Assembly: GCA_965243315.1 (NCBI GenBank)
Contig: CBDEUP010000007.1
Span: forward strand, 1,833,668 to 1,897,667
Source: Alphaproteobacteria bacterium
Lineage (GTDB): Bacteria > Pseudomonadota > Alphaproteobacteria > UBA828
DNA: 64,000 bases
Reading direction: 5' to 3'
The translations under genes and the position numbers were made by a program. Shown here piece after piece: positions 756-52,015 of the stretch. Positions within the stretch are counted from its first letter, which is position 1, and the number at the start of each line of letters is the position of its first letter. Under the pieces are notes generated by a model. The model was not told where the DNA came from and ran no database searches. It was given only the letters and a program-made list of their open reading frames with translations.

Positions 756-906
756 CGACCGGCTCTCCTCCGCAGCGGGGTTCCGGGCTTTCGAGTCTAG
801 CAGAGCCAATCGATCATGAGCGTGACGAATATAAGACAATCAGGGGTCTGCGGCGCCGGCATCAGGTACACGGAACCCCGGCAACCGCCTGTGCTAGTGT
901 CGCGCC

Positions 907-3639: not shown

Positions 3640-3702
3640 CCGGCCACCACGCGCCGGTATAAGATCGGGGCACTTGGATCGACAGCCGGGTCGTGAGAGG
3701 AC

Positions 3703-7388: not shown

Positions 7389-7486
7389 CCGCCCCTCCTT
7401 CGCTTGGCGCAGGCGTGGCGGGCGACTATCGTGCGCGGCTTGTCGCCGCAGCACGGGCAACACCGTGACACATAGCGTGAGACCAT

Positions 7487-7546
7487 ATGAGTAGCACCAC
7501 CGAGGGCGCCCGCTACGTGCTGGCCGTCGATGTCGGCGGCACTTAA
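7487..7546 (+). pseudogene. 19-codon remnant of a hydantoinase/oxoprolinase (HyuA-type) N-terminus, truncated at the island border
   Basis: ATG ... TAA encodes MSSTTEGARYVLAVDVGGT*, the canonical start of Hydantoinase_A proteins (compare the intact hyuA at 49857: ...RFRIGVDVGGTFTDL). Confidence 0.45.
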
Positions 7547-15891: not shown

Positions 15892-16922
15892 GTGCTCGTC
15901 GTCACGGTCGGCGCGATGACTCCGGGCGCGTTCATCGCCAAGTGGCGGGCGTCGGAGTTGAAGGAAAGCTCGGCGTCGCACGAACACTTCATCGACCTGT
16001 GCCGCCTGCTCGGCGAGCCGACGCCGGCGGAGGCCGACCCGGCGGGCGAGCGGTACTGCTTCGAGCGTGGCGCGCGGAAGGACACCGGCGGCGACGGCTG
16101 GGCCGACGTATGGAAGCGCGGCTTCTTCGCATGGGAGTACAAGGGCAAACGCGCGGACCTCGACGCGGCGTTCAATCAACTGCGGCAGTACGCGCTCGCG
16201 CTGGAGAATCCGCCGCTGCTGATCGTCTCGGACATGGCGCGGTTCCGCGTCCGCACCAACTGGACGAACAGCGTGAGCGTGACGCACGAGTTCACGCTCG
16301 ACGACCTCGCCGACGGCGCGACCCGCGACAAGCTCAAGTGGGCGATGTCGGACCCGGAGCGGCTGCGGCCCGGCGAGACGCGGCAGACGGTGACGGAGCG
16401 CGCGGCGGCAACCTTCGCGGAGCTTGCCCAAGGGTTGCGGGATCGGGGCCACGACCCGCAGACGGTGGCGCACTTCGTCAACCGTCTGGTGTTCTGCATG
16501 TTCGCCGAGGATGTCGGCCTGCTGCCCGGCGACATGTTCACCCGGATGCTGGAACAGGCATGCAGGCGGCCGGACGAGTTCGCTGAGCTTGCCCGCGACC
16601 TGTTCGGGGCAATGTCTGTCGGAGGCCGCGTCGGATTCGAGTCCGTGGCCTGGTTCAACGGCGGGCTGTTTGACGACGACACGGCGTTGCCGCTCGACCG
16701 GCAAGGAATCGAGACGGCGCTCAAGGCGGCGGCGCTCGACTGGTCGGAGATCGACCCGTCAATCCTCGGCACACTGTTCGAGCGCGGCCTCGACCCGGAC
16801 AAGCGTTCGCAGTTGGGCGCGCACTACACCGACCGCGACAAGATCATGCGGATCGTCGAGCCGGTGATCGTTCGGCCCCTGCTCGCGGAATGGGAGACGG
16901 CGAAGGCCGGGATCGCGGCTAC
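15892..16922 (+). CDS. MmeI-family type IIL restriction-modification enzyme, exon 1 (N-terminal PD-(D/E)XK endonuclease domain and linker)
   Basis: N-terminal FIAKWRASELKESSASHEHFIDLCRLLGEPTP...DVWKRGFFAWEYKGKRADLDAAFNQLRQYALALENPPLLIVSDMARFRV parallels the MmeI nuclease domain; LFERGLDPDKRSQLGAHYTDRDKIMRIVEPVI is the MmeI/PglX-family helical motif. The reading frame is interrupted after ...ETAKAGIAAT (codon AC|) by a group II intron starting GTGCG at 16923. Confidence 0.75.
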
Positions 16923-33625: not shown

Positions 33626-33651
33626 GCTGAGCGTGCGCACGCTATTTGAGG
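33626..33651. repeat. transposon left terminal inverted repeat
   Basis: GCTGAGCGTGCGCACGCTATTTGAGG; 25/26 complementary to 38032-38056. Confidence 0.65.
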
Positions 33652-33774
33652 GGAATCCGCCGGATTCCGCTCAGATTATTTGATGTTTGGGGCTGGGCGC
33701 CCCCCAGCCAACTTGCAAGAAGCGGGCCAGGGGGCTTGTCTCGGTGACGGTGAATCAACCTGAGACCGGTCCGA

Positions 33775-34389
33775 ATGTCGCACACGCTCTTCGCCGATTC
33801 CAGCTTTTGCAACGCCCGGGTCTGGGCTTTCCTCGAACGCGTTGACGAGACCGAGGCTGCGGCCTGCCGCGCGGCGGGATGTTCGCTCTGCGGCGGCGGG
33901 CTTCACAGCGCGACCTACCCGCGCAAGCCGCACGGTCTGGCGCCCGAGCTGAGAGAGGACGCGCGGCGTTACAGCTTCTGCTGCGCTGATTGCAGGCGTC
34001 GCAAGACGCCGCCGTCGTGCCGCTTCTTCGGCCGCCGCTTCCGCGTGGCGCCGCTGTTCCTGCTGGTGAGCGTGCTGGTTCTGGCCGGCGGCGTGCGCCT
34101 GGAGACGGTCGGCCGGGAGTGGGGAATCCCGGTGCAGACGCTGCGGCGCTGGCGGCGGTGGTGGCAGGAGACATTCCCGCGAACGCGGCCGTGGCGCTGG
34201 AAGCGGGGCGAGCTGGCGGTGCCGCCCGACGAGGCGCCCCTGGTGGTTCTGCTGGCCTCGGTTCGCGGCCGTAGCGCGCGCTCGCGGCTGCTGCGGGGCC
34301 TGATCTGGCTGATGCCGTGGACGGGCTTTTGCACGCTCGGCGATGGTCCGGCGCCGTCCGCAGAAACTGTTTCTTCTCACGCCATGTGA
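33775..34389 (+). CDS. Cys-rich hypothetical protein (first gene inside the transposon)
   Basis: 204 aa; CNARVWAFLERVDETEAAACRAAGCSLCGGGLHS ... FCCADCRRRKTPPSC cysteine clusters then a hydrophobic segment. Confidence 0.4.
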   Translation: MSHTLFADSSFCNARVWAFLERVDETEAAACRAAGCSLCGGGLHSATYPRKPHGLAPELREDARRYSFCCADCRRRKTPPSCRFFGRRFRVAPLFLLVSVLVLAGGVRLETVGREWGIPVQTLRRWRRWWQETFPRTRPWRWKRGELAVPPDEAPLVVLLASVRGRSARSRLLRGLIWLMPWTGFCTLGDGPAPSAETVSSHAM

Positions 34390-34439
34390 GGCGTTCTACA
34401 TGGCGTCTCCCCGGACACCGGCCAGGGAGAGACGCCGTC

Positions 34440-35921
34440 ATGAGCAGCAGCAACGGCAAGGGCGACCGCGACGGGTGGGCGCGCTTGCGCTTCGCGGTGG
34501 TCGGGCCTCTTCTGGCCTCGCCGCCGCCCAAGGGGCGGCTGCGGGCGGAGTTGCAGCGGCTGGCGGAGCGTAGCTGGGAGCATCCCGCGGGCGGCGGCCA
34601 GGTGCGGTTCTCGGTATCCACGCTGGAACGCTGGTACTACCAGGCCCGGGCGGCGCATCGGGACCCGGTGAAGGCCCTGCGGCCACGGCCGCGCGGCGAC
34701 GTGGGACGCGTGCGGTCGATGTCGCCGGTGCTGATCGAGGCGCTGCTCGATCAGTACAAGGCCCATCCCTCGTGGTCGGGCCAGCTCCACTACGACAATC
34801 TGCAGGCCCGCGTCGAGGCCGAGCCCGCGCTCGGGCCGATGCCCTCCTACGCCACCCTGACCCGGGTGATGCGCGCCCGCGGGCTGGTGCGCCGGCGCCG
34901 GCGCAAGTGGTTCGAGAGAGAGGACAAGGCGCCGGCCGAGGCGCGCGAGGTGCTGAGCTACGAGGTCGAGCGCAGCCACGCTCTCTGGCACGCCGACATG
35001 CATCACGGCAAGCGCCGGGTGCTCACGGCCACCGGCGAATGGAAGACGCCGATCCTGCTCGGCTTCCTCGACGACCACTCGCGTCTGGGCTGCCACCTCC
35101 AGTGGTATCTTGCCGAGACCGCCGAGGTCTTCGTCCACGGAATCTGCCAGGCCTTCATGAAGCGGGGCCTGCCGAGGTCCCTGCTCACCGACAACGGTGC
35201 GCCGATGACGGCGGGCGAGGTCGAGGAGGGGCTGCACCGGCTCGGCATCCTTCATTCCAGGACCATGGCCGGGGCTCCCCACATGAACGGCAAGTGCGAG
35301 GTCTGGTGGGCCGCCGTCGAGGGCCGCCTGATGGCCATGCTCGACGGCGTCGAGGCGCTCACCCTTGAGAAGCTCAACGACGCCACCCTCGCCTGGCTCG
35401 AGCGCGACTACCACCGCCGGGTGCATCGCGAGCTCGGCACGACGCCGCTGAAGCGCTTCCTCGACAGCGACGACGCCTCCAGGCCCTGCCCGGAAACGGA
35501 CGTCCTCAGGGCGGCCTTCCGCATCACCGTGAAGCGCACGCTCAGGCGCTCGGACGGAACCGTCTCGGTCGAGGGCGTGCGCTACCAGGTGCCGGCGCCG
35601 TGGCGGCACCTGGCAACGCTGTTCATCCGCGTCGCGCGCTGGGACCTCTCCAGCGTCGACCTGGTCGACGGCCGCACCGGCGAGCGCCTGTGCACGCTCT
35701 ACCCGCTCGACAAGCGCGGCAATGCCGGCGGGGTGCGCCTTCCCAGCGGACCCGCCGACGGCGATCGCGGCGGGGGCGCCGCCGCCACGGAACTGGGACC
35801 GGCGCCGCTGCTCAACCGGATCCTCGACGACCAGGCCGCCTCCGGACTGCCGCCGCTCTGGCTGCCCCATGCCGAACCGCGCGACCGCGACAAGGACGAC
35901 GAACAGGGAGACCCGTCATGA
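34440..35921 (+). CDS. DDE transposase of the TniA/TnsB (retroviral-integrase rve) family
   Basis: ~493 aa from ATG 34440 (SD GGGAGAG); catalytic LWHADMHHG (D), LLTDNGAPM (D), HMNGKCEVWW (E) with integrase-like spacing; N-terminal HTH region. Confidence 0.8.
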   Translation: MSSSNGKGDRDGWARLRFAVVGPLLASPPPKGRLRAELQRLAERSWEHPAGGGQVRFSVSTLERWYYQARAAHRDPVKALRPRPRGDVGRVRSMSPVLIEALLDQYKAHPSWSGQLHYDNLQARVEAEPALGPMPSYATLTRVMRARGLVRRRRRKWFEREDKAPAEAREVLSYEVERSHALWHADMHHGKRRVLTATGEWKTPILLGFLDDHSRLGCHLQWYLAETAEVFVHGICQAFMKRGLPRSLLTDNGAPMTAGEVEEGLHRLGILHSRTMAGAPHMNGKCEVWWAAVEGRLMAMLDGVEALTLEKLNDATLAWLERDYHRRVHRELGTTPLKRFLDSDDASRPCPETDVLRAAFRITVKRTLRRSDGTVSVEGVRYQVPAPWRHLATLFIRVARWDLSSVDLVDGRTGERLCTLYPLDKRGNAGGVRLPSGPADGDRGGGAAATELGPAPLLNRILDDQAASGLPPLWLPHAEPRDRDKDDEQGDPS

Positions 35922-36754
35922 ACCGCCAGCACCTCACCCTCTACGGCCTCAAGTGGAATCCCTTCGCGACCGACCTGCCGGTCGAGGGTCTCATGACCAC
36001 TCCGGCCGTCGACAGCTTCTGCCTCAGGGTCGAACGCCACCTCGTGCGCGAGGGCGGCTTCGCCATGATCTCCGGCGATCCCGGCACCGGAAAGAGCGTC
36101 GCCCTGCGCCTGCTCGCCAAGCGCCTCGAACGCAACGACGCCGTGCACATCGCGGTCCTCACCCATCCGTCGTCCACCATCGGCGACTTCTACCGCGAGA
36201 TGGGCGACCTCTTCGGCATCGAGCTGATCCACAACAACCGCTGGATCGGCTTCAAGGGCCTGCGCGAGCGCTGGCGCGCCCACGTCGAGGACACCCGGCT
36301 GCGCCCGGTCCTGCTGATCGACGAGGCGCAGGAGGTGCTGCACGCCGTCCTGACCGAGCTGCGCCTGCTCGCCTCCACCGAGTTCGACTCCCGCGCCATC
36401 CTCTCGATCGTCCTGGCCGGCGACAACCGGCTCCTCGCCAAGCTGCGCAGCGAGGAGCTGCAGCCGATCGCCTCGCGCATCCGCCAGCGCCTCGTCATGT
36501 CGGCCGCCGAGCCCCGCGAGCTCGAGACGCTGCTCGACCATCTGCTCGAACAGGCCGGCAATCCGGCGCTGATGACGGCGGGCCTCAAGGACGCGCTCTG
36601 CGCCCACGCCGCGGGCAACCCCAGGTCGCTCTGCATCATGGCCGACAGCCTGCTCGTCGCCGCCGCCGAGCAGGACCGCGAGATCCTCGACGAAAAGCTC
36701 TTCATGGAGATCTGGGGCGAGCCCGTGCCGCGCGCCCAGGGGGCGCGGCGGTGA
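35918..36754 (+). CDS. TniB/TnsC-like AAA+ ATPase (ExeA-type)
   Basis: 278 aa; ATGA overlap with the transposase; Walker A ISGDPGTGKSVAL, Walker B VLLIDEAQEV, SIVLAGDNRLL. Confidence 0.75.
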   Translation: MNRQHLTLYGLKWNPFATDLPVEGLMTTPAVDSFCLRVERHLVREGGFAMISGDPGTGKSVALRLLAKRLERNDAVHIAVLTHPSSTIGDFYREMGDLFGIELIHNNRWIGFKGLRERWRAHVEDTRLRPVLLIDEAQEVLHAVLTELRLLASTEFDSRAILSIVLAGDNRLLAKLRSEELQPIASRIRQRLVMSAAEPRELETLLDHLLEQAGNPALMTAGLKDALCAHAAGNPRSLCIMADSLLVAAAEQDREILDEKLFMEIWGEPVPRAQGARR

Positions 36755-37740
36755 GCGGCTTCCCCACCCGCCACCCGGCGGCCCTGGAGGACCGGCCGCG
36801 GCAGCAGCACTGGCTGGTCGACGAGCTCTGGGCCAAGCAGGCGGTCGGCATCATCGGCGGCGAGCCCAAATGCGGCAAATCCTTCCTCGCTCTCGATGTG
36901 GCCGTCGCGGTCGCCGCCGGCGTCCCCTGCCTGCGCCACTTCGCGGCCGCCCAGACCGGCCGGGTCCTGATGTACGCCGCCGAGGACGCCGGCCACATCG
37001 TGCGCAGCCGTCTGGAGGGCATCGCCGGGGCCGCCGACACGCCCTTCGACAAGCTCGACATCGCCGTGATCGACGTCCCCACGCTGCGCCTCGACCATCG
37101 TGCCGACCGCCAGCGTCTCCAGGAGACCGTGCAACAGCTCAAGCCGCGCCTGGTGGTCCTCGACCCCCTGGTCCGCCTCCACGGCGTCGACGAGAACACC
37201 GTCGCCGAGATCGCTCCCATCCTCGGCTTCCTGCGCGACCTCCAGCGCCGGTTCGAGACCGCCGTGCTGCTCGTCCACCACGCTCGCAAGAGCGGCGCTA
37301 CGCGGCCGGGCCAGGCCCTGCGCGGGAGCAGTGAGCTGCACGCCTGGGGAGACTCCAACCTCTACCTGCGCCGCCGCGACAAGCAGATCGTCATGACCGT
37401 CGAGCACCGCGCCGCTCCCGGCCTCAACGACATCGAGATCGAGCTCGCCGATGACGGTCCGGGACCCGCCCTGCGCCTCCGGCGGGCGGTGCCGAACCAG
37501 GCCCCGCCAAAGCCGGAAACCCCCGAACAGCGCATCGTGCAGGCCCTCGCGGACGCCGATGAGCCGCTCTCCCAGTCCCAGATCCGGGAACGGGCCGCAG
37601 CCCGCAACTCAACCGTCACCGCGGCGCTGCACGAGCTCGTGCGCGAAGGACGTATCGAGCGCGGTCCGGGAGGTCGCTACCGCTACCTTGGCGGCGTGTC
37701 GAATGACGCCGCCATGCAGACCGCCAGCGCCAACGGCTAG
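36753..37740 (+). CDS. AAA_25/RepA-like (DnaB-fold) ATPase with C-terminal winged helix
   Basis: ~329 aa (GTG start overlapping tniB stop); WLVDELWAKQAVGIIGGEPKCGKSFLALDVAVAVAAG (Walker A), LVVLDPLVRLHG, LLVHHARKSG; C-terminal IVQALADADEPLSQSQIRERAAARNSTVTAALHELVREGRI wHTH. Confidence 0.6.
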
Positions 37741-38031
37741 GCGAAGCACGACGCGTTCCCGGTCCCGTTCCGGCCAACCCTTAAGGGTTCGAGGGAACGG
37801 GAACGGGAACGGCGGCGCCTATCCCCCATCGCAACCCTGCGTCAAGCAGTCGGCCCATGGCCGAAAGCTTGCCTTACGGCCATGGCAGCACTTCGTCGCG
37901 TGGACGGCAGCGGGTCACCCGAAGGGCCGTAGCGAAGCGAAGGAGCCGCGCAGCGGCTTGACGCGCTGACGGCCTCGCGACACCCCACCGGCGCGAGCTT
38001 CAGAGTCCATCAAATAGCGTGATCGGAGCGT

Positions 38032-38056
38032 CCTCAAATAGCGTGCGCACGCTCAG
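38032..38056. repeat. transposon right terminal inverted repeat
   Basis: CCTCAAATAGCGTGCGCACGCTCAG. Confidence 0.65.
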
Positions 38057-38121: not shown

Positions 38122-38153
38122 TTGACAAACCCCGAAGCGGCTCTCGTTACAAT
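38122..38153 (+). promoter_or_regulatory. sigma70-like promoter (TTGACA - 20 nt - TACAAT) immediately upstream of the pentanucleotide tract and the giant gene
   Basis: Consensus -35 hexamer at 38122-38127 and TACAAT at 38148-38153; spacer is longer than optimal. Lies 65 nt beyond the transposon right IR. Confidence 0.35.
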
Positions 38154-38156
38154 CTT

Positions 38157-38260
38157 GCCGAGCCGAGCCGAGCCGAGCCGAGCCGAGCCGAGCCGAGCCG
38201 AGCCGAGCCGAGCCGAGCCGAGCCGAGCCGAGCCGAGCCGAGCCGAGCCGAGCCGAGCCG
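38157..38260. repeat. perfect pentanucleotide simple-sequence repeat (AGCCG)x~21
   Basis: 104 nt of uninterrupted GCCGAGCCGAG...; produces the artefactual PSRAE/LGSAR peptide repeats in the ORF track on both strands. Confidence 0.95.
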
Positions 38261-38286
38261 CTTCGCCTTGCGTCCGCGCACCGGCC

Positions 38287-41200
38287 ATGAGCGCGCCGTC
38301 GGGGCGGCGGCTGTTGCCCTGGCGTCCCCTACGCCGCGGGGCGTCCCCGCCTGAGTCTTCCGCCGCCGGGCACGCCGCGTCCCGCCCGGCCCGCACCTCC
38401 TCCGAACGCTCCGCCTCTTCCTCCTCCCCCGCCCGGCGTGGCCCGCGCCGTGTGTGGCGCGGCCTGCTTGCGGCGCTGCTCGCCCTGCCGCTCGCCGCCG
38501 GCCTTGCCGCCGGGGCGCAGGCGCAGTCGACGGTGAGCTTCGCGCAGTCGAGCTACGTTGTAGACGAGGGCGAGGACGCAACGCTGACGCTGCAGCTCTC
38601 GCCCGCCCGCACGGTGGCGACGGAGGTCCGGGTGACGTTTGTGGACCTGACCACATCGCCCAAAGACTACGACGAAAGTGCGCAGACGGTGACCATCCCG
38701 GCGAACGCGACGAGCGCGACGGTGACGGTCGGGACCGAGGACGACCAGTTCATAGAAATCAAAGAGTCAGCCCGGGCCCATATCGATTCGGGCTCCCTGC
38801 CCTCCGGGGTGACGGTGGGCACGCAGGGGACTACAGACATCGTCATCACCGACAACGCGGTGCCCGCCCTGGTGTTCACGCCGAAGGCGCTGACGGTGGC
38901 CGAGGGCGGCTCGGCGAGCTACGAGGTGGCGCTGTCGCACCGGCCCCATCACGCAAGCGCCTCAATCACGGTGGCCATCTCCGGGCAGGCGGACACGGAC
39001 CTGACGCTGGACAAGACGAGCCTGACCTTCGGGCACTCGAACTGGAACCAGGCGCAGACCGTGACGGTGAGCGCGGCCGCGGACACCGACCGGACCGACG
39101 ATGCCGCGACGCTCGACCACGCCGCGTCGAGCGGAGTCTCCAAATTCAACGGAGTCACCGGCAGCCTCGCGGTAACGGTGCAGGAGAACCTGCCGGTCAT
39201 CGGCGTCTCCGCGGCGACGAGCGATTTCACCGAGGGCGACGCCTCGAAGGTGGCCTTCTCCGTCACCGCCTCGGGCGGGGAGACCGGCGACTACCCGGTG
39301 TCGGTGACGTTTGGGACGAGCGGCGCGGCGACCCAGGGTACCGACTACACCCTCCCGGCCTCGGTGACCTTGTCGGCCGACGGCGCCTCGGTGGCGGTCC
39401 CGATACTCGTCGCCGACGACGACACCGTGGAGGGCGAGGAGACCGCGGCCATCACGATACCGGCGGGCTCGGGCTACCGCCCGGACAAGGATGCCGCCAC
39501 CCACACCATGACCATCGCGGACAACGACCACTCGATTAGCTATCGGGTCCGGGGCACGCCTGTGGAGGGCAGCACGAGTACCGTGATTGGCCGGGGCAAT
39601 GGAATCATCAATTTCCAGCAACCCACCCCGCAGTTGGCGTCGGGCGAGACGATGACGATACCGCTGTCGTTCGCAGACGGCACCCTGGGCACGGACTTCA
39701 CGCTGGCGGTGGGGGATCACGACTTTGCCTCGGCGTCGGTGGACGCCACGACGGGGGTGGTGAGTGTCACGGGTCCGACGAGCAGTGCCGCCACCTTCGT
39801 TGTGCTGCTCCTTGCCAGCGAGGACACGGACACGACCGACGACACGGTGACGGTGAGCGTGGGCAGCGGCGCGACGGCGGGCGGCGGCGCCCTGGTCGCC
39901 ACCCGCCGGGGCAATGGACAGTTGACGATGCTGGACAACGACGTGTCCCAGAGCCTGACCGTGGAGTTCACCCAGTCCGGGTTCAGCGTGAACGAGGACC
40001 GGACGGTGCAGCCGGTGGCGCGCCTGTCCGAGACGGCGCGCACCGACATCGACATCCCGGTGACGGTGACCTCCGGCACGGCGACGCGCGGGGTGGACTT
40101 CGAGAGCGCCGCCGCGCGCACGCTGACCGTGTTCGCGGGCGGAACGACCGGCACCGTCTCCATCCCCATGATTGACGACGACCTGACGGAGGGCGACGAG
40201 ACCTTCACGATTGCCATCGACACCGCCTCGCTGCCGACCGGGGTGACGGCGAAGCCGGGGGGCCACCTCCAGGCGACGGTGACCATCCTCGACAACGACG
40301 AGACGCCGACGCTGTCCATCGCCGCCCCTGCGGACGCCGACGAGGGCGATGGGCTCGCGTCCACGCGGCTGTTCACCGTGGGGCTCACCCGGGCGGTGGC
40401 GGGCGCGGTGCGCTACGAGGTGTGCTTCTCGGGCACGGCGAAGTCCGCCGCTGACGCGCACCGCTCGCAGGAGCTGGTCGACTACCGGGTGCAGCGCGAC
40501 GGCGCGGGGGTGGCGGCCGAGTGCCTCGAGGACCTCACGCTCGCTGCGGGCGCGACCGCCTCGGGGCAGGCCGTCGGCATCAAGGTCCTGGGCGACACCT
40601 TCGCCGAGCCCGACGAGACGGTGGTGGCGACGCTCGAGATGAAGGCCGCGCCCGACGGCGTGCTGCTCGGCACCTCGGTCGCGACCCACGTCATCGGCAA
40701 CGACGACGGGACGGAGGCGACGCTCACGCTTGCGCCCGCGCCGGGCGCGGTGACGGCGCTCGTCGAGGGCGACGCGCCGGCGCACTTCGTCATCGACGGC
40801 ACGGGTGCCACGCCGGGCGCGGAGTACTACGTCCAGCTCGCGCTCGGCGGCGAGGCGAAGAACGGGACGGACTACCGGCTCGAGATACGCATCGACGGGC
40901 AGTGGCACCAGTTGAGCCGCAATCTGCGGCGCAGCATCTTCTCCGTGTTCGAGCTGCCGACGCGGCTTCGCCTCTTCGCGCTTGCCGACACGGCGCCCGA
41001 GGGCGACGAGCGCGCGGTGCTCACCCTTGCCGACGCGCAGGGCTACGCGCCCGGCACGCCGTCGGAGGTGACCTTCGTCATCGGCAACGGGCCGCCGGCG
41101 GTGACCGTCGAGGCGGTCGAGGCGGCGGTGACCGAGGGGGCGCCGGCGCGCTTCACGGTGCGCTTGAGCGAGGCGCAGGTCGCGGACTTCGACGTGGCGG

Positions 41201-44200
41201 TGCGCATCGCCGAGGACGGGGACGGCGACTTCGTGGCCGGGGACGACGAGGGGGTGCAGAGCTTCACCGTCCCCGCGGGCGAGACCGAGGCGGTGCTCGA
41301 GGTCGCGACCGACGACGACACGACGCACGAGCCCGGCACGGCGGTCACGGCGACGGTGGAGCCGGGCGCGGGCTACACGGTGGGCACCCCCGCCTCGGCC
41401 GCGGTCGCGGTGGCCGACGACGGGGACCTCGAGCTGTCGCACGGCATATTCCCGGCAACGGCGGGCGAGGGCAGCACGCTCGGGGCCGCACGGTTCTACC
41501 TGCGCCCGCAACGGGCGCTCGCCGCGGGCGAGACGGTGACGGTCCCGCTCGCGTTCACCGGCGGGACCCTCGGCACGGACTTCACGCTCGCGCTCGATGC
41601 CGCCTCCGCCCAAGCGTTCGGGTCGGCGTCGCTCGCCGCGGGCACGGTGACGCTCACCGGTCCGGCGGATAGGGGCAGATTGCTGAACGTGAACCTCTTC
41701 GCCGCCGAGGACGACGACGCCGACGACGAGGTGGTGACGCTCGGCTTCGGGGCGATGTCGACGAGCGCCGGGGGCGACGTCGGGCTCATGCGGTTCACCA
41801 GCGACCGGATAAAGCTGCTCGACAACGACGTCCCGCAGTCGCTCACCGTCGAGTTCACCCGCGATGCGCTCACCATCTTCGAGGACATCGGTCTCCTCGA
41901 GCCGATACTGCGGCTCTCGGAGGTGGCGCGCCGGGACGTCGCGGTCAAGGTGACGCTCACCGACGGCACGGCGGTGCGCGGGGCGGACTACGAGAGCGCG
42001 GCCACGCGCACCGTGACCTTCCCGGCGGGCAAGGAGGTCTCGGGCCTCCAGGTGAAAATCCTCATAGACAACGAGGTGGAGGGCGACGAGACCTTCATGG
42101 TGGCCATCGACACGGACTCGCTGCCGGCGGGGGTGACCGCGAAGCCGGGCGGCAATGCCGAGGCGACGGTTACCATCCTCAACGACGACACGACGGCGTC
42201 GTTCGCCGCGGCCGCCTCGAGCGCGAGCGAGGGCGCGGGCGCCCACACCGTGACGGTGAACTTCACGCCGCCGGCGGCGTCATTTACCTCCCTCCGCTAC
42301 ACCGTGGGTGGCACGGCGAGGGCGGGCGAGGACTTCACCATCGCGGGCTCGGGCAGCCTCTCGGTGCCCATCGACGCGACGAGCGTCGACATCGAGGTCG
42401 CGGTGGTCGACGACGCCGTGCCCGAGTACGCGGAGACGGTCGTGCTCACCCTGACCGACGGCGGCAGACGCATCGCCCTCGGCGCCACCACCGTCCACAT
42501 CCTCACCATCGCCGACGACGACGCGGGCACGCCGCCGAACCCGGTGCGCCTCTCGGTCTCGGACGCCGGCGCGGTGGCCGAGGGCGGGACGGTCACGGTG
42601 ACCGCGACCCTCGACCACGCCAACGCCACGGGCGGCGCGCTCGCGATACCGCTTGCGGTGCGCGCCGCCGGCACCACCGCGGCGCCCGGCGACTACACGG
42701 TGGCGTCGAGCATCGCCATCGCCGACGGCGCCACCGCCGGCACGACGGACCTCGCCGCGACCGACGACGACGCGGTCGAGGCGCCGGAGACGGTGGTGCT
42801 CGCGCTCGGCGCGGCGCTCCCCGAAGGGGTCGCCGCGGGCACGCCCGGCCACGTGACGGTCACCATCGCCGACGACGACCTGGGGCTCACCTACGGCGTT
42901 CGCGATTGGAGCGCCACGGAGGGCGAGCCGACGAGCCACGCGCGGCTCTTCGTGCGGCCGCAGTGGGCGCTCGGCGCGGGCGAGACGCTGACCGTCCCGC
43001 TCACCTTCACCGGCGGAACCTTGGGCACGGACTTCACGCTCGCCCTCGAGGCGGCCTCCGCGGCAAGGTTCGCCGCGGCGACGCTTGCCGCGGGCACGGT
43101 GACGCTCACCGGCCCGGCGCGGGCGGACGCCGCCGTGTACGTCCGCCTCTTCGCCGCCGAGGACGACGACGCCGGCGACGAGACGGTGACGCTCGGCGTC
43201 GGGACGGTGGCGTCGAGCACCGGCGCCGCGGTCGCCGCGAGCCGGCAGGGCGACGGGCGGATGACGCTGCTCGACAACGACGGCGACCTCGAGCTGCGCT
43301 ATGGCGTTTTGCCTGCCACCGCCGCGGAGGGCAGCACCACCGCCCTCCGGCAGCTCTGGCTGACGCCGCGACGGGCGCTCGCCGCGGGCGAGGCGGTGAC
43401 GGTGCCGCTCGTGTTCGAGGGCGGGACGCTCGGTACGGACTTCACGCTCGCGCCCGGTGTCCACGGGTTCGGCTCGATGGTGCTCGCCGCGGGCACGCTG
43501 ACGCTCACCGGTCCGGCGAATCGGGGCGCCACCGGGTTCGTGAACCTCTTCGCCCTCGAGGACGACGACGCCGACGACGAGGTGGTGACGCTCGGCTTCG
43601 GAGCGGCCTCGTCGAGCACCGGCGCCGCGGTCACGCACACCCGGTTCGGCGACGGGCGCATCACGCTGCTCGACAACGACGCCCCGCAGTCGCTCACCGT
43701 CGAGTTCGCCAGCGATGCGTTCGGCGTCTACGAGCACAACGGTCCCGCCGAGCCGGTGCTGCGGCTCTCGGAGGTGCCGCGCCGCGACGTCGCGGTGCGG
43801 GTGACGGTGACCTCCGGCACGGCGGTGCGCGGGGAGGATTTCCTGAGCGCGGCCACGCGCACCGCGACCTTCCCGGCGGGGGGCGCCACGACCACGAACG
43901 TCCCGATGACCCTCCCCAACGACGCCCTGGTGGAGGGCGACGAGACCTTCACGGTGGCCATCGACACGGCCTCGCTGCCGGCGAACGTGACGGCGAAGCC
44001 GGGCGGCAACGTCCGGGCGACGGTCACCCTCTTCGACGACGACACCGCGACGGTGGGGTTCGCGCGCGGCGCGCTCGCGGTGCGCGAGGGCGATGCGGCG
44101 CGCCCGGTGCTGGTGCTCTCCAAGGCGTTCGCCGCCGATGTCACGGTCGGCGTCGAGGACGCCGCGGGCACCGCCACCGCGCCCGGCGACTACGCGGCCG

Positions 44201-47200
44201 GTCCGTACTCGGTGACCTTCCCCGCGGGCGCCAAACGCGCGGCGTTCGACGTGGCGACGGTCGCGGATTCCACCGCCGAGGGCGCGGAGACGTTCTCGCT
44301 GCGGATACCGGCCGCGGGCCTCCCGGCGGGGATGGGCCTTGCCGCGGCGGGCGCCGCCACCCCGCCCGAGGCGACCGTCACCGTCTCCGAGAGCGCGCCG
44401 CCGAGCGTGCCCGAGGCGGCGTTCGCCGCGGGCGAATCGGACGCGGGCGAGGCCGCGGGCACCCGCACCGTGACGGTGCACCTCGTACCGCCGCCGACCT
44501 CGCCGCTCGCGCTCGCCTACACCGTGGGCGGCACCGCGACGGCGGGCGCGGACTTCACCATCGCGGGCTCTGGCATCGTCGCGGTGCCCGCGCACGCGAC
44601 CGGCGTCGACATCGAGGTGGCGGTGCTCGACGACACCGCGCAGGAGTCCGACGAGACGCTCGTCCTGACGCTCGCCGCCGGCGCGGGCTACACGGTGGGC
44701 GCCCCGGGCGTGCACACGCTCACCCTTGCCGACGACGACGCGCCGCCGCCCGCGCCCGTGGTCTCGGTCGCGGGCACGCCGGGCGCCGAGGGCGGCGCGC
44801 CGGCGCGCTTCCTCCTCACCGCGCGCCCGCGGCCCGCGGGCAGCGTCGCGGTGACGGTCGCGGTGACGCAGAGCGGCGGCTATGCCGGCCCGGGCGAGAC
44901 CGGCACGCGCACCGTGACGATGGACGCGTCGGGCTCGGCGCTGCTCGACGTCGCGATTGCCGACGACGCCATCGACGAGCCGGACGGCAGCTTCACCGCG
45001 ACGGTGCGCCCCGGCACGGGCTACGCGGTGCACGCAAGCGCTGCCGCCGCCACCGTGGCGGTGGCCGACGACGACCCGACCCGGGTGACGCTTGCGGGCT
45101 CCGCGGACGCAATCCCCGAGACCGGGGGGACGAAGACGCTGACGGTGCGCCTCGCCCGGGCGCTGGTCGCACCGGAGACGCTCGCGGTGCCGCTCGTGTT
45201 CGCAGGCGAGGCGGTGCGGGGCCTCGACTACACGCTGAGCTGCGGCAACGACACCGGCGCGGCCTGCCGCGACCTTGCGGGCGAGGCGCCGCGCATCGAG
45301 TTCAGCGCCGGCGGGCGCACCGCGACGGTGACGCTCGCCGCCGCCGGCGACGCCATCAACGAGGGCGCGGGCGAGACGGTGACGGTGGCGCTCGGTGCGC
45401 TCGACGCGAGCTCGGGCACCGGCCTCGGCGGGGGTGCGGCGGGCGCAGGCAGCGTCGCGTTCACCATTACCGACGACGACGCGGGCCCGGAGCCGGGTAT
45501 TGTGCTGCCCGATACGGACGTGGCCGTGGTCGAGGGCGCGACGGCGAGCTACGAGCTCAAGCTCGCCTCCGACCCCGGCGACGGCGCCACGGTGCGGGTG
45601 AGCGTCACCTCCGCGGACACCGGCGCGGTGACGGTGAGCGACACCCAGTCGGGTGTGAACGGCACGCAGGACTGGCTCGACTTCACCGGCGGCGCCGCCG
45701 GCACCTGGAGCACCGCCCAGACGGTGACCGTCGCCGGCGTGCACGACGCCGACTCCGCCCACGAGGCGGACGTGGCGCTCGCCCACGCCGCGAGCGTGCA
45801 GGCGGGCACGAGCGCGCCCTATGCGGGGCTTGCGAGCCGGACGCTCCACGTCGACGTGACCGAGGACGACGCGGCCGAGGTCGGCTTCAAGCAGGACGCC
45901 CACGCGGTGGACGAGGGCGACGACGCGACGCTCACGCTCACGTTCACGCGCGCGCTAGGGAGCGACGTGACCGTGCGGGTCCTGCTGACCGGTCTCGGGG
46001 CGACCGGCTCGGGCGTCGACTTCGACTCGACCCCGCGCTCGATTGCCGTCCCGGCGGGGACGGTGGAGCAGGCGTTCACCGTCTCGACCGTCGAGGACGA
46101 GAAGTTCGAGGGCTACGAGACCTTCCAGGCGACGATTCTCGCCCTCGGCCTCCCCGACGACCTGGCGCTCGCCGCCGCGCACCGCTCGACCGTCACCATC
46201 GTCGACGACGAGGCCTCGGTCTCGCCCGCGCTCGACGCCGGCATCCACGAGGGCGAGACGCTGACCTACACCGTCTCGGGAATCGACCCCGCGCATGCGA
46301 GCGTGACGCTCCTGGCCGCCACCTCGAGCACCGCGACCCGCGACGTCGACGGGACGTGGGACGCGGGCGAGGACTACCGCCTGCTTCGCCCCGGCGACCC
46401 CGAGGACACGGTGCTCGGCGCGACCGACACCCTCACCCCCTCGGGCGGGGCGGTGACGTTCCGCATCAAGACGCGCGCCGACACCGACGACACCGAGGGC
46501 GACGAGACGGTGGTGTTCGAGATGGAGCTTCCGGGTGTCTTGGGGGAGGCGGCGCTCGGGACGCTGGCGCTGAAGAACGGCCCGCGCCTCGAGGCTGGGG
46601 TCGCGCTCTCCGCGCAAACCCTCGCCCTCGACGAGGGGACGACCGGCACCTACACCGTGGCGCTCACCCTCGCGCCCGCCCCGGGCGAGACGGTGACCGT
46701 CACCGCGGCGAGCCCCGATGCGGGCGCGGTGCGGGTGCACGCCGCCGGCGGCTCCCCGGGGGCGCGCGCGACGCTGACCTTCACCGACGCGACCTGGAGC
46801 GCCGCGCAGACGGTGACGGTGACCGCGCTCTCCGACTTCGATGCGAGCGACGAGCGCGTCGACATCGCGCACGCGGTCGAGGGCACGGGCGCGTACGCGG
46901 ACGTGACCGCGCCGGCGGTGGCGGTCACGGTGGACGACGACGAGGTGCCCGTCGTGGTCTCGGTCGCCGCGGGCGCGGCGGTGGATGAGGGCGGGGCCGC
47001 GACCTTCACGGTGACGGCGACGCCTGCGCCGCCCCGCACGCTTCGCATCGCGCTCGCGCTCGGCGAGACCGGCGCGTTCCTCGCCCCGGGCGCCACGCTG
47101 CCTGCGGTGCACCTCAGCCCCACCCGGGCGTCGCAGAGCGTCTCGCTCGCGACCGAGGACGACACGGTCAACGAGGCGCACGGCGCGGTGACGCTCACCG

Positions 47201-49554
47201 TGGAGGCGGGGACCGGCTACGTCGTGGCGGCCGCGCCGGACCACACCGCGAGCGTCGAGGTCCGCGACGACGACGGGGCGGGCATGCCGGTGGTGAGCAT
47301 CGCGAGCGCGCAAAGCCCCGGCGCGACCGCGTTCGAGGGCGACGCGCTCGTCTTCACGGTGCGCGCCGACCCCGCGCCCGCGGCCGAGCTCGCCGTCACC
47401 GTCGGCGTCGCCGAGAGCGCGGGCAGCGCCTTCGTCGTCCCCGGCGGAACGGGGAACAAGACGGTGACGATTGCGGCGAACGCGCGCACGGCGACGCTGA
47501 GTGTCGCGACCGTCCAGGACACCGACGAGGAGGACCCGGCGTTCGCGACGGTGACGGCGACGGTGGCGCACGCGCCGGGCTACACCGTCGCCGATGCGCC
47601 GCGCGACAGCGCGCAGGCGACGGTCTCCGACGACGACGGGCTGCCCGGGGTCACCATCCACGACGCGCAAGCCGAAGAGGGCGACCCGATGTTCTTCCGG
47701 GTGACGCTCTCGAAGGCGGCGGCCCACACCGTCGAGGTGAAGTGGGCGACGAGGTTCGAGTACGACGCCAACAAGTGGGAGACCGGCAGCGCCCGCTACA
47801 CCCTCGACTACACGAGCGCCAACGGCATCCTGCGCTTCGCCCCGCGCGAGACCGTGCGCGAGATCCTGATCTACACCGTCGACGACGCCCACGACGAGGG
47901 CGACGAGACGTTCGAGGTGGAGCTCTCCGACCCTGTGGGGGCGGTGATAGCCGACGGCCTCGCGACGGGGACGATCACGAACGACGACCCGCTGCCCGCG
48001 GCCTGGCTCGCGCGCTTCGGGCGCACGGTGGCGGAGCAGGCGCTCGAGGGCGTCGCGGACCGCATCGCCGCCCCGCGCAAGCCGGGGATGCAGGGCACGC
48101 TCGCCGGGCAGGCGCTGAGCCCCTCGACAGGCTCGGGACAGGCGCTCGACCCGGCGGCTTCCGGCCAGGCGGCGGGCGGAACGCCCGGCACGGCGGCGCT
48201 CGCGCTCGCCGACGTGGCGCGCCGCTTCGGCGACGGCCCGTTCGATCCGTTCGGTCATGGCGCCGCGCCGGGCCCCGGCGCGGCGCAGGCGCAATCGCGC
48301 ACGATGACCGCGAGCGAGGCGCTGCTCGGGTCGAGCTTCACGCTGACCGGCGAGACGGACGGCGCGGGCGGCACCATGGCCTTCTGGGGCCGGGCGGCGC
48401 AGTCGAGCTTCGACGGCGTCGAGCGGGGCGCCGGCACCGACATCGCCCTCGACGGCACGGTGACCACCGGCATGCTGGGCGCGGACTATGCGCGCGGGCC
48501 CTGGCTGGTGGGGCTTGCGCTGACCCTGAGTTCGTCCGAGGGCAGCTATGCCGCCACCGGCGATCGGGATCCCTGTCCCGGTACGGACGCGGACCGGTGC
48601 GACGGCGCGGTGCGCGCCGGCGACGGCACGCTGGAGGCGTCGCTGACGGCGGCGGTGCCCTATGCGTCGTGGCGGGCCTCGGAGCGCCTCAAGCTCTGGG
48701 GCGCGCTCGGCTACGGCGCCGGCGAGGTGACGCTGAAGACGGGCATGGGCGAGCGCCTCGGCGCGGACATCGACTGGACCATGGCGGCGGCCGGCCTGCG
48801 GGGCGACGTGATCGCGCTGCCCATGGAAGGCTCCGGCCTTGCCCTCGCGGTGACCTCGGACGCCATGTGGGCGCGCACGGCCTCGGAGAAGACACGGGAC
48901 CTTGCGGCGTCGGAGTCCGACGTGACCCGGCTCAGGCTCGGGCTGGAGGGAAGCTACCGCGTCGCCCTCGAAGAGGGCGGCAGCCTGACGCCGAAGCTGG
49001 AGGTGGGCGCGCGCCATGACGGGGGCGACGCCGAGACCGGGTTCGGGGTCGAGCTCGGCGGCGGCATCGCCTGGGTCGACCCGGCGCTCGGGCTCTCGCT
49101 CGATCTCTCGGGCCGCACGCTGATCGCGCACGGCAACGACGACCTGGAGGACCATGGCTTCGCGGCTTCGCTCGCCTGGGACCCGGCCCCGGCGACGAAG
49201 CGGGGTCCGTCGCTGACGCTCACCCAGGACTGGGGCGGGCGGGCCGAGGGCGGCCTCGACGCGCTGTTCGCGCCGGACCCGCTGGAGGACCGGACGGGCA
49301 ATGGCGAGCCGACCTCCCGCTGGGCCATGGAGGCCGCATACGGCCTGCCGGCCTTCGGCGGGCGCTGGACCGGCAGCCCGCATGCCGGGCTGGGGCTCGC
49401 GACCGGCACGCGCGACTACACGATCGGCTGGCGGCTAGCGCCGGAAGCGGCCAACGCGCCCGACCTGTCGCTCGGTCTCAAGGCCACCCGCCGGGAGAGC
49501 GACACGGCCGAGCCCGAGCATAGCGTCGGGGTCGAAGTCCGTGCCAGATGGTGA
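38287..49554 (+). CDS. giant secreted surface protein (~3.7k aa): N-terminal signal peptide, >25 Calx-beta domains interleaved with a ~150 aa repeated module, C-terminal autotransporter-like outer-membrane beta-barrel
   Basis: Open frame 38122-49554. Plausible starts are ATG 38287 or GTG 38452 (MWRGLLAALLALPLAAGLAAGAQA|QSTV signal peptide). Calx-beta signatures recur, e.g. VTVTSGTAVRGEDF...LVEGDETFTVAIDTASLP...ATVTLFDDD. C-terminal 280 aa have alternating-hydrophobic beta-strands and end ...SVGVEVRARW (terminal aromatic typical of OMP barrels). Confidence 0.8.
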   Translation: MSAPSGRRLLPWRPLRRGASPPESSAAGHAASRPARTSSERSASSSSPARRGPRRVWRGLLAALLALPLAAGLAAGAQAQSTVSFAQSSYVVDEGEDATLTLQLSPARTVATEVRVTFVDLTTSPKDYDESAQTVTIPANATSATVTVGTEDDQFIEIKESARAHIDSGSLPSGVTVGTQGTTDIVITDNAVPALVFTPKALTVAEGGSASYEVALSHRPHHASASITVAISGQADTDLTLDKTSLTFGHSNWNQAQTVTVSAAADTDRTDDAATLDHAASSGVSKFNGVTGSLAVTVQENLPVIGVSAATSDFTEGDASKVAFSVTASGGETGDYPVSVTFGTSGAATQGTDYTLPASVTLSADGASVAVPILVADDDTVEGEETAAITIPAGSGYRPDKDAATHTMTIADNDHSISYRVRGTPVEGSTSTVIGRGNGIINFQQPTPQLASGETMTIPLSFADGTLGTDFTLAVGDHDFASASVDATTGVVSVTGPTSSAATFVVLLLASEDTDTTDDTVTVSVGSGATAGGGALVATRRGNGQLTMLDNDVSQSLTVEFTQSGFSVNEDRTVQPVARLSETARTDIDIPVTVTSGTATRGVDFESAAARTLTVFAGGTTGTVSIPMIDDDLTEGDETFTIAIDTASLPTGVTAKPGGHLQATVTILDNDETPTLSIAAPADADEGDGLASTRLFTVGLTRAVAGAVRYEVCFSGTAKSAADAHRSQELVDYRVQRDGAGVAAECLEDLTLAAGATASGQAVGIKVLGDTFAEPDETVVATLEMKAAPDGVLLGTSVATHVIGNDDGTEATLTLAPAPGAVTALVEGDAPAHFVIDGTGATPGAEYYVQLALGGEAKNGTDYRLEIRIDGQWHQLSRNLRRSIFSVFELPTRLRLFALADTAPEGDERAVLTLADAQGYAPGTPSEVTFVIGNGPPAVTVEAVEAAVTEGAPARFTVRLSEAQVADFDVAVRIAEDGDGDFVAGDDEGVQSFTVPAGETEAVLEVATDDDTTHEPGTAVTATVEPGAGYTVGTPASAAVAVADDGDLELSHGIFPATAGEGSTLGAARFYLRPQRALAAGETVTVPLAFTGGTLGTDFTLALDAASAQAFGSASLAAGTVTLTGPADRGRLLNVNLFAAEDDDADDEVVTLGFGAMSTSAGGDVGLMRFTSDRIKLLDNDVPQSLTVEFTRDALTIFEDIGLLEPILRLSEVARRDVAVKVTLTDGTAVRGADYESAATRTVTFPAGKEVSGLQVKILIDNEVEGDETFMVAIDTDSLPAGVTAKPGGNAEATVTILNDDTTASFAAAASSASEGAGAHTVTVNFTPPAASFTSLRYTVGGTARAGEDFTIAGSGSLSVPIDATSVDIEVAVVDDAVPEYAETVVLTLTDGGRRIALGATTVHILTIADDDAGTPPNPVRLSVSDAGAVAEGGTVTVTATLDHANATGGALAIPLAVRAAGTTAAPGDYTVASSIAIADGATAGTTDLAATDDDAVEAPETVVLALGAALPEGVAAGTPGHVTVTIADDDLGLTYGVRDWSATEGEPTSHARLFVRPQWALGAGETLTVPLTFTGGTLGTDFTLALEAASAARFAAATLAAGTVTLTGPARADAAVYVRLFAAEDDDAGDETVTLGVGTVASSTGAAVAASRQGDGRMTLLDNDGDLELRYGVLPATAAEGSTTALRQLWLTPRRALAAGEAVTVPLVFEGGTLGTDFTLAPGVHGFGSMVLAAGTLTLTGPANRGATGFVNLFALEDDDADDEVVTLGFGAASSSTGAAVTHTRFGDGRITLLDNDAPQSLTVEFASDAFGVYEHNGPAEPVLRLSEVPRRDVAVRVTVTSGTAVRGEDFLSAATRTATFPAGGATTTNVPMTLPNDALVEGDETFTVAIDTASLPANVTAKPGGNVRATVTLFDDDTATVGFARGALAVREGDAARPVLVLSKAFAADVTVGVEDAAGTATAPGDYAAGPYSVTFPAGAKRAAFDVATVADSTAEGAETFSLRIPAAGLPAGMGLAAAGAATPPEATVTVSESAPPSVPEAAFAAGESDAGEAAGTRTVTVHLVPPPTSPLALAYTVGGTATAGADFTIAGSGIVAVPAHATGVDIEVAVLDDTAQESDETLVLTLAAGAGYTVGAPGVHTLTLADDDAPPPAPVVSVAGTPGAEGGAPARFLLTARPRPAGSVAVTVAVTQSGGYAGPGETGTRTVTMDASGSALLDVAIADDAIDEPDGSFTATVRPGTGYAVHASAAAATVAVADDDPTRVTLAGSADAIPETGGTKTLTVRLARALVAPETLAVPLVFAGEAVRGLDYTLSCGNDTGAACRDLAGEAPRIEFSAGGRTATVTLAAAGDAINEGAGETVTVALGALDASSGTGLGGGAAGAGSVAFTITDDDAGPEPGIVLPDTDVAVVEGATASYELKLASDPGDGATVRVSVTSADTGAVTVSDTQSGVNGTQDWLDFTGGAAGTWSTAQTVTVAGVHDADSAHEADVALAHAASVQAGTSAPYAGLASRTLHVDVTEDDAAEVGFKQDAHAVDEGDDATLTLTFTRALGSDVTVRVLLTGLGATGSGVDFDSTPRSIAVPAGTVEQAFTVSTVEDEKFEGYETFQATILALGLPDDLALAAAHRSTVTIVDDEASVSPALDAGIHEGETLTYTVSGIDPAHASVTLLAATSSTATRDVDGTWDAGEDYRLLRPGDPEDTVLGATDTLTPSGGAVTFRIKTRADTDDTEGDETVVFEMELPGVLGEAALGTLALKNGPRLEAGVALSAQTLALDEGTTGTYTVALTLAPAPGETVTVTAASPDAGAVRVHAAGGSPGARATLTFTDATWSAAQTVTVTALSDFDASDERVDIAHAVEGTGAYADVTAPAVAVTVDDDEVPVVVSVAAGAAVDEGGAATFTVTATPAPPRTLRIALALGETGAFLAPGATLPAVHLSPTRASQSVSLATEDDTVNEAHGAVTLTVEAGTGYVVAAAPDHTASVEVRDDDGAGMPVVSIASAQSPGATAFEGDALVFTVRADPAPAAELAVTVGVAESAGSAFVVPGGTGNKTVTIAANARTATLSVATVQDTDEEDPAFATVTATVAHAPGYTVADAPRDSAQATVSDDDGLPGVTIHDAQAEEGDPMFFRVTLSKAAAHTVEVKWATRFEYDANKWETGSARYTLDYTSANGILRFAPRETVREILIYTVDDAHDEGDETFEVELSDPVGAVIADGLATGTITNDDPLPAAWLARFGRTVAEQALEGVADRIAAPRKPGMQGTLAGQALSPSTGSGQALDPAASGQAAGGTPGTAALALADVARRFGDGPFDPFGHGAAPGPGAAQAQSRTMTASEALLGSSFTLTGETDGAGGTMAFWGRAAQSSFDGVERGAGTDIALDGTVTTGMLGADYARGPWLVGLALTLSSSEGSYAATGDRDPCPGTDADRCDGAVRAGDGTLEASLTAAVPYASWRASERLKLWGALGYGAGEVTLKTGMGERLGADIDWTMAAAGLRGDVIALPMEGSGLALAVTSDAMWARTASEKTRDLAASESDVTRLRLGLEGSYRVALEEGGSLTPKLEVGARHDGGDAETGFGVELGGGIAWVDPALGLSLDLSGRTLIAHGNDDLEDHGFAASLAWDPAPATKRGPSLTLTQDWGGRAEGGLDALFAPDPLEDRTGNGEPTSRWAMEAAYGLPAFGGRWTGSPHAGLGLATGTRDYTIGWRLAPEAANAPDLSLGLKATRRESDTAEPEHSVGVEVRARW

Positions 49555-52013: not shown

Positions 52014-52015
52014 AC

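Follow-up and report, generated by a model that had tools for sequence, protein, structure and literature searches.

In a 64,000-nucleotide (nt) stretch of DNA from an alphaproteobacterial assembly (GCA_965243315.1, contig CBDEUP010000007.1; hereafter the window, whose numbering is used throughout), a long pentanucleotide repeat, (AGCCG)n, is lodged between a promoter-like element and the start of a gene for a giant secreted Calx-beta protein. The best explanation, which we hold with slightly better than even confidence, is that this tract is a hypermutable 5' leader between an atypical, conserved promoter and the ATG at 38287, with slippage in the repeat altering the expression level of the gene. 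The locus in the window is designated WIN and the comparison loci bear L-numbers; all elements of WIN described below lie on the forward (+) strand.

The tract, a perfect (GCCGA/AGCCG) array of 20.8 units at 38157..38260, was recovered by Tandem Repeats Finder as a period-5 repeat with 100% matches and zero indels; an exact check places 20 full AGCCG units at 38161-38260 within a period-5 extent of 104 nt. It is the sole perfect simple sequence repeat (SSR) of at least 18 nt in the 64-kb window, the GC content of which is 69.3%. A first-pass annotation of this DNA had described a perfect tract of about 21 units and 104 nt, set 3 nt past a TTGACA/TACAAT pair, and both points are borne out: the trinucleotide CTT intervenes between TACAAT and the repeat, and 26 nt separate the end of the tract from ATG 38287. 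WIN shows two features of SSR contingency loci, namely a long perfect repeat and its placement in the promoter/leader region. At such loci unit-number changes alter expression reversibly, at 100-10,000 times the basal rate (PMC11868660). The window also contains an intact mutS gene (907-3639), and the SSR is hence kept in a background with probably working mismatch repair.

Upstream of the tract are an exact match to the -35-like hexamer, TTGACA (38122..38127), and, 20 nt past it, a -10-like hexamer, TACAAT (38148..38153). The canonical sigma-70 spacer is 16-18 nt, which places WIN outside that class, and a sigma-70 scan of the region with spacers of 16-18 nt called no promoter at the tract because the hexamers are 20 nt apart. 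Thus, the earlier wording, a "consensus promoter", overstates the case. Comparative evidence comes from a scan for (AGCCG)5 with one genome per species, which yielded at least 120 loci in many phyla, 105 of 120 with both flanks readable. Of these 105, 20 have TTGAC at a distance of 24-45 nt ahead of the tract, where about one is expected (p about 1e-20), as against four loci with the same placement but the opposite tract orientation; nine, against an expectation of 0.02, have both sigma-70-like hexamers, the pair ending 0-10 nt short of the tract. The form TTGACA-N19/20-(T/C)A(C/T)AAT, ending 0-6 nt before the tract, is present in L114, L022, L056 and L019 with a spacing of 20 nt and in L023 with 19 nt, and by inspection also in L146, L089 and L091. 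Between homologous loci the spacers are unrelated in sequence and nearly fixed in length, and this combination of conserved hexamers with free spacers of near-fixed length is promoter-like rather than coding-like. Likewise, in L019, the gene of which has a GC content at third codon positions (GC3) of 0.94, TATAAT read as codons would give the very rare ATA and ATT, which argues that the hexamer is a nucleotide signal rather than a pair of codons. We conclude that the conserved element with its 19-20-nt spacing is probably a functional but atypical promoter. Beyond about 45 nt upstream nothing is shared between genomes that might constitute a conserved regulatory region. MerR-type promoters have 19-20-bp spacers and resemble the element in spacing. 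A short palindrome, GGGGTT-GACA-AACCCC (38122-38137), is centered on the -35-like hexamer of WIN, and L056 has a palindrome with 9-bp arms at the matching position. A sigma-32-like -10 (CCCCAT) was rejected for its wrong spacing.

The position of the start codon is central to any interpretation of the tract. TTG 38122, ATG 38287 and GTG 38452 are all in frame with the open reading frame (ORF) 38122-49554, the nearest in-frame upstream stop of which is at 38020. A start codon is found 0-26 nt past the tract in at least 12 loci, as ATG in WIN, L022, L044, L103, L107, L031 and L095 and as GTG in L023, L195 and L056. The N-terminus at this post-tract start is conserved (MSAP, MSAF, MSAL or MTAP) and leads into a basic, Pro/Ser-rich stretch with P-(P/S)-E-(P/S)-S, which is followed by a signal peptide of the pattern RRGLL...LPLLL...A-x-A common to family members. 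In WIN the pre-signal leader amounts to 55 amino acids (aa) (MSAPSGRRLLPWRPLRRGASPPESSAAG...RRGPRR; 38287..38451) and was delineated by BLASTP and a DNA alignment of 11 leaders: in BLASTP it is 49% identical over 78 aa to that of the Poribacteria locus L114 (E 1e-4), which is in turn 67% identical over 54 aa to that of the Nitrospirales locus L095 (E 2e-10). A putative signal-peptide core with an AQA/QS cleavage-type site (VWRGLLAALLALPLAAGLAAGAQA; 38452..38523) comes next, as judged by eye from the translation. Of the two starts weighed by the first-pass annotation, ATG 38287 is on this comparative ground the most likely start of the giant gene, whereas GTG 38452 is rejected as unlikely because conservation across phyla extends to the peptide encoded ahead of it. 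TTG 38122 was likewise rejected. The GC content by codon position is flat upstream of the tract (0.64/0.64/0.61; from TTG 38122, 0.50/0.42/0.55) as against a GC3 of 0.90-0.95 in the giant gene, so that the upstream segment is not coding-like; the TTG is part of the -35-like hexamer itself, and the adjoining G-run, with zero spacing, is unusable as a Shine-Dalgarno (SD) sequence. No SD sequence is found at any of the three candidate starts, while about half of the other genes in the window have one. With the start only 0-26 nt past the tract, a promoter could not fit between the two, which would put the tract in the mRNA leader and makes the upstream element the obvious promoter candidate. With a conserved start behind it and non-coding-like sequence ahead of it, the tract is most likely untranslated in WIN, i.e. 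a 5' leader.

The same arrangement recurs well beyond the window. Among the matches listed, about 20 other loci from six phyla show (AGCCG)n of 7-52 units past a TTGAC/-10-like element, and a long open frame runs from the end of the tract in WIN, L035, L107, L103, L022, L023, L114, L116, L019, L044, L091 and others. In WIN this is the giant gene (38287..49554; 3755 aa) with eight Pfam Calx-beta stretches (E 2e-102). The cargo is likewise Calx-beta in L035 and L114, with He_PIG and LapA additionally in L035; it is PKD/Big_9 in L091, cadherin-like in L103, LRR+fn3 in L107 and fn3 in L031. In L035 the tract runs to 38 units and heads the gene of a true homologue of the giant protein (tblastn E 1e-98). 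A search with the N-terminal 700 aa found no orthologue, the matches being at most 1215 aa long and at most 48% identical with partial coverage. The architecture is seen repeatedly, directly ahead of large secreted or surface proteins. The hosts belong to the Alpha- and Gammaproteobacteria, Acidobacteriota (including Ca. Multivorans), Gemmatimonadota, Ca. Tectimicrobiota (Entotheonella), Ca. Poribacteria and Nitrospirota, and are mostly sponge-associated; Entotheonella and Poribacteria are sponge symbionts (PMC4996862, PMC8546597), and one isolate, Thiobaca trueperi (L088), also carries the cassette. Two loci per genome are found in Entotheonella (L103/L107), Ca. Multivorans (L041/L050), Ca. 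Rariloculaceae (L019/L116) and the Pseudomonadales genome jk18x11bins.34 (L045/L056). The paralogs L103 and L107 are 96.6-97.7% identical in their upstream sequence and differ in their cargo, which indicates that the cassette is modular.

(AGCCG)n is hypervariable in nature, as copies with near-identical flanks differ by whole units. L180 and L215, with flanks 100%/98% identical, have tracts of 79 and 74 nt, i.e. a difference of one unit; L103 and L107 have 28 and 32 units, and L044 and L045 have 17 and 19. A scan of metagenomes for the motif gave at least 120 matches, mostly human-gut contigs of an analogous unit, among which 58 contigs of one lineage share an identical 22-nt flank and have tracts of 25-80 nt in 5-nt steps, with length variation alike in two further gut flank groups.

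From these observations we infer that the upstream element acts as the promoter, that the tract is transcribed and that its length affects expression. A transcript from TTGACA-N20-TACAAT would begin at about the first repeat unit; replication slippage would add or remove 5-nt units at high frequency, and the resulting heritable and reversible cell-to-cell differences in leader length would translate into differing amounts of the protein. The outcome would be a contingency locus of the upstream or 5'-untranslated-region SSR type, for which a variable level is expected over ON/OFF. In the few family members without a start of their own, the tract would itself be part of the reading frame, and changes in its length would switch the gene ON or OFF by shifting the frame. 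The proposal of the first-pass annotation that this is a phase-variation candidate is, therefore, well founded as to hypermutability, given the unit-step variation in related loci, and as to the adhesin-like association, but not in its frame-switch form: an ON/OFF switch through TTG 38122 is unlikely in view of the flat upstream GC, the identity of the TTG with the -35-like hexamer, the lack of an SD sequence and the conserved post-tract start.

Several points weigh against this explanation. The 20-nt spacing of the -35 and -10 hexamers is poor for sigma-70, and in L120, L105, L061, L088, L045 and L041/L050 an SD sequence and ATG directly follow TTGAC, which makes a -35 role doubtful in those loci. 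L035, L114, L019 and L091 have intact ORFs without a canonical start past the tract, and the early closure of the alternative frames together with an invariant out-of-frame TGA, both described below, hint that ribosomes may cross the tract. A transposon ending 66 nt upstream of the TTGACA may have altered the native regulation of the gene. A second same-species copy of WIN was not found in look-ups of four window proteins and of a 100%-identical AAA_25 protein (P0189), and a metagenome scan with the window-specific flank likewise gave no match. Further, both collection scans, with at least 120 matches each, are arbitrary subsets, and most of the evidence derives from metagenome-assembled genomes (MAGs).

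The strongest rival, which we nevertheless regard as unlikely, is that the tract is a neutral by-product, i.e. a promoter-proximal slippage hot spot without regulatory effect that hitch-hikes on a spreading 5' cassette. Runs of (AGCCG)n of at least five units are indeed widespread, with more than 120 occurrences. Some of these have nothing to do with secreted proteins: in Actinomycetota they sit in mixed-pentamer arrays, and in Saccharibacillus one lies antisense where a regulator gene ends. The tract is also without associated RNA structure or a known RNA family: no Rfam family matched at gathering or E-value thresholds, no conserved RNA structure was found among the leaders, and (AGCCG)21 is not unusually unstructured, ranking 18/32 among pentamer repeats of 80% GC. 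Against this, perfect tracts persist in place despite the divergence of their flanks across phyla, where a neutral SSR should decay; the orientation bias of 20 to 4 and the tightly constrained distances to the upstream element and to the start are hard to reconcile with neutrality, as is the enrichment of the tract ahead of one functional class of genes.

A slightly less probable alternative is a translational switch like that of the opa genes, in which translation would start at TTG 38122 or TTG 38155, the tract would be read in frame as (SRAEP)n, and a change in unit number would lead to a stop at TGA 38288 or TGA 38352, giving OFF, or to re-initiation at the ATGA. An open frame extends from 38023 across the tract and on into the giant ORF, with both TTGs in frame, though an in-frame state has a one-in-three chance anyway. 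Past the tract, the first stop in the +1 frame is a TGA overlapping the start codon as ATGA (38288..38290); NTGA at the post-tract start is also seen in L022, L044/L045, L103/L107, L031, L023 and L195. The first +2-frame stop is a C-TGA within the codons CCT-GAG (38351..38354), which is invariant in 11 of 11 aligned leaders; the rarity of its codons in the giant gene is another point in favor of a switch, with CCT accounting for six of 183 Pro codons (similarly, TCT is used for one of 129 Ser). Both alternative frames thus stop within 92 nt of the tract, which is unusual in being true of 3.8% of gene-body positions, and the early closure is family-wide, with a combined p of about 4e-5 across loci that are not independent. 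The four relatives that lack a post-tract start, L035, L114, L019 and L091, have SD-bearing ATGs upstream, candidates being AGGAGGattctATG in L091 and an in-frame ATG at -50 in L035, and their architecture suggests translation through the tract. There is also a precedent in the CTCTT repeats within the signal-sequence coding region of opa (PMC13183285). For WIN, however, the DNA preceding the tract lacks a coding signature, TTG 38122 coincides with the TTGACA hexamer and has a G-run too close to serve as SD, and homologues differ in the sequence of the hexamer spacer as well as, by 1 nt, in its length, which coding sequence would not tolerate; the conserved start codon just past the tract likewise speaks against it. 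Hence, WIN most likely does not have its repeat inside the ORF past a start codon, as in opa, and an opa-type frame switch is unlikely there, while the four relatives may fit this type. A +2-frame mini-ORF ending at the C-TGA (M[VA]APP[RG]A[LI]RLPA*) shows, in four loci (L114, L095, L035 and L022), a degree of conservation close to that of the main frame, but its copy in the window lacks a start codon. A +1 frameshift of the prfB kind at the C-TGA was rejected, there being no SD-like stimulator and poor re-pairing.

Still more improbable is that the RNA of the tract is a functional platform, i.e. a site for SD-independent ribosome landing, for Rho-loading or a binding array for a protein recognizing GAG triplets two bases apart, with length having a threshold effect only. 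The start 0-26 nt past the tract, mostly without an SD sequence, would agree with this. So would the folding of the leader: the RNA 38157-38460 is predicted to fold less stably than its dinucleotide shuffles (z = +2.0), the tract is unpaired in the centroid structure, and the repeat sequence itself allows only helices of up to 2 bp. Moreover, the GAG-N2 periodicity equals that of TRAP binding sites. However, the predicted ensemble energy of (AGCCG)21, -44 kcal/mol, is only mid-rank among the GC-rich pentamer repeats, and the above rank of 18/32 rules out, as stated, the notion that the tract was selected for being unstructured; no candidate binding protein was identified, and a platform leaves the perfection of the tract, hence its variability, unexplained. 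Finally, that the tract is an assembly or sequencing artefact, given that long SSRs are prone to mis-assembly and that short-read contigs may collapse tract length, is exceedingly improbable, since it lies within a contiguous 64-kb window with unique flanks and many independent assemblies, chromosome-level ones included, show the identical architecture.

Returning to the tract as a leader of variable length, its closest precedents are the AGAT(n) of uspA2 and the poly-G of uspA1 in Moraxella catarrhalis, where a long perfect SSR likewise lies between the promoter region and the start of an adhesin; the AGAT(n) of uspA2, upstream of the ORF, causes graded variation in transcript level (PMC7302503). 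The unit number of these tracts differs between strains, and here, too, a graded rather than ON/OFF effect would be expected. Unlike them, the unit of WIN is a GC-rich pentamer instead of a tetramer or homopolymer; its tract reaches from the predicted +1 nearly to the start codon, whereas that of uspA2 is 132 bp upstream; its hosts are uncultured environmental or symbiotic high-GC bacteria; and the cassette is common to several phyla and unrelated cargo genes. A second class comprises SSRs in promoter spacers, exemplified by the TA repeats of Haemophilus hif and the poly-G/C of Neisseria porA and opc. WIN resembles these in having an SSR tied to -35/-10-like hexamers of a surface-protein gene, but differs in that the tract is downstream of the -10-like hexamer, so that the unit number cannot alter promoter spacing; the arrangement called "classical" by the first-pass annotation is, if taken in the promoter-spacer sense, not applicable to a tract that starts past TACAAT. 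With Neisseria opa (CTCTT; PMC13183285) the locus shares a pentamer at the extreme 5' end of surface-protein genes, near the signal peptide, as well as the occurrence of several loci per genome in relatives (Entotheonella, Ca. Multivorans and Ca. Rariloculaceae), and L035, L091, L114 and L019 appear to have the tract inside the ORF. Unlike opa, WIN and most relatives have a conserved start past the tract with non-coding-like sequence upstream, and the repeat would encode a charged (SRAEP)n rather than a hydrophobic core; sequence homology to opa is absent. The cargo, with cadherin, fn3, LRR, Calx-beta and PKD domains, is like that of the eukaryote-like proteins of sponge symbionts and is found in the same lineages (PMC8546597, PMC4996862).

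In the literature searched we found no link of the AGCCG motif, eukaryote-like proteins or sponge symbionts to SSRs or phase variation, and the shared 5' cassette appears to be undescribed. This leads to a broader proposal, which we offer tentatively and rate at somewhat under an even chance, that a horizontally mobile 5' cassette, made up of the promoter-like element, (AGCCG)n and about 60 aa of pre-signal leader, has become joined by recombination to many eukaryote-like adhesin genes in phylogenetically unrelated members of sponge microbiomes and constitutes, along with the analogous units of gut Firmicutes and Saccharibacillus, a general phase-variation device. Phase variation by SSRs is textbook knowledge for a handful of host-adapted pathogens and is, to our knowledge, regarded as rare in high-GC environmental bacteria. 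If the proposal is true, contingency loci would extend to uncultured sponge symbionts of several phyla and be tied to the "eukaryote-like" adhesins thought to mediate host recognition, a whole symbiont community would have stochastic, heritable control over its host-interaction surface proteins, and the switch would spread horizontally as a module, with or without its cargo. The analogues in gut Firmicutes and Saccharibacillus further raise the prospect that the pentamer is perhaps an unrecognized general phase-variation device outside the classical pathogens. Heterogeneity in tract length would then be expected in existing HiFi metagenomes, and cultured carriers such as Thiobaca trueperi and Saccharibacillus make the cassette experimentally accessible. 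There is also a caution for annotation: start codons and "frameshifted" giant genes beside such tracts may represent phase states rather than errors.

The genomic setting of WIN is itself mobile. Judging from sequence, the host is an uncultured alphaproteobacterial lineage; its MutS is 66-69% identical to that of Rhodospirillales/Alphaproteobacteria MAGs and 90-95% to that encoded on ENA contigs. Compared with three relatives (MutS 92-95% identical), the window is collinear at 87-93% identity only for positions 1-7542, the homology ending 55 nt into their hydantoinase A gene. As the relatives run straight from a molybdenum cofactor (MoCo) dehydrogenase gene into hydantoinase A/B, the segment 7543..64000, which contains the tract and the giant gene, is a strain-specific genomic island of at least 56 kb marked by lost collinearity; the hydantoinase A/B genes of the window (49857-53791) are only paralogs of about 70% identity. 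An integrase gene (7803-8987) lies 260 nt inside the left edge of the island, which contains integrases, a TrwC relaxase, an MmeI-like gene with a group II intron and a serine recombinase. This mobile context, together with the TrwC neighbor of L023 described below, fits a spread of the cassette across phyla. A search of the region against plasmids returned only distant AAA ATPase homologues.

The transposon next to the tract (33627..38055, + strand), with the order HTH (helix-turn-helix), rve transposase, AAA_22 and AAA_25, has its right end defined by comparison: identity to L245 (90%) ends at 38055 and that to L244 (79%) at 37985, with unrelated genes following in those loci, while the sequence of L246 ends short of the transposon terminus. 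Direct repeats of TCAAATAGCGTG at 38010 and 38034 are within this right end, and their candidacy as sites for a regulator of the giant gene was rejected on account of this location in the transposon terminus. Its AAA_25 gene occupies 36751-37740, and the module is 75-92% identical at the protein level in MAGs of many phyla; a 58-nt palindrome is also present in the transposon (37754-37811). Elsewhere in the island, the MmeI-like restriction-modification gene (15892-17181) encodes N-terminal and helicase-spacer domains; the group II intron, the RNA of which was recognized as RF02005 at 16958-17181 (176 bits), either follows or interrupts this gene.

In L023, from an alphaproteobacterial MAG, a homologue of the TrwC gene of the window (9969-13016) is found at 646-3365 with 69-72% nt identity, about 1.5 kb upstream of the tract-led gene. 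The tract of this locus is at 4871-4915, and the gene that it leads, a lipoprotein-like ORF exceeding 1029 codons, has a leader that opens with GTG-AGT-GCG-CCC ("VSAP").

Units analogous to the cassette show other configurations. In the human-gut Firmicutes family (L121-L240, e.g. L134 at 4902-4961) the tract is situated between a LuxR-type regulator gene and a gene for an LPXTG surface protein, upstream of the latter, which is read on the opposite strand; convergent promoter-like elements flank the tract, namely TTGACA-N17-TATGCT on one strand and TTGACT-N17-GACAAT with an SD sequence and ATG on the other, and tract lengths differ between people in 5-nt steps. In Saccharibacillus isolates (L018, L055, L040 and L059) a TTGNTT-N17-TAGAAT promoter is followed after 5 nt by (AGCCG)13-18; in L018 (3864-3943) the promoter and tract read in antisense into the 3' end of a gene for an AraC-type response regulator, the tract beginning right past the stop codon of that gene. 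Many loci from Actinomycetota and Betaproteobacteria (L002, L009, L016, L028, L037, L046, L075, L078, L092 and others) have short AGCCG runs in mixed-pentamer arrays with GGCCG, AAGCC, GTGCC and other units, a separate and apparently non-genic microsatellite context.

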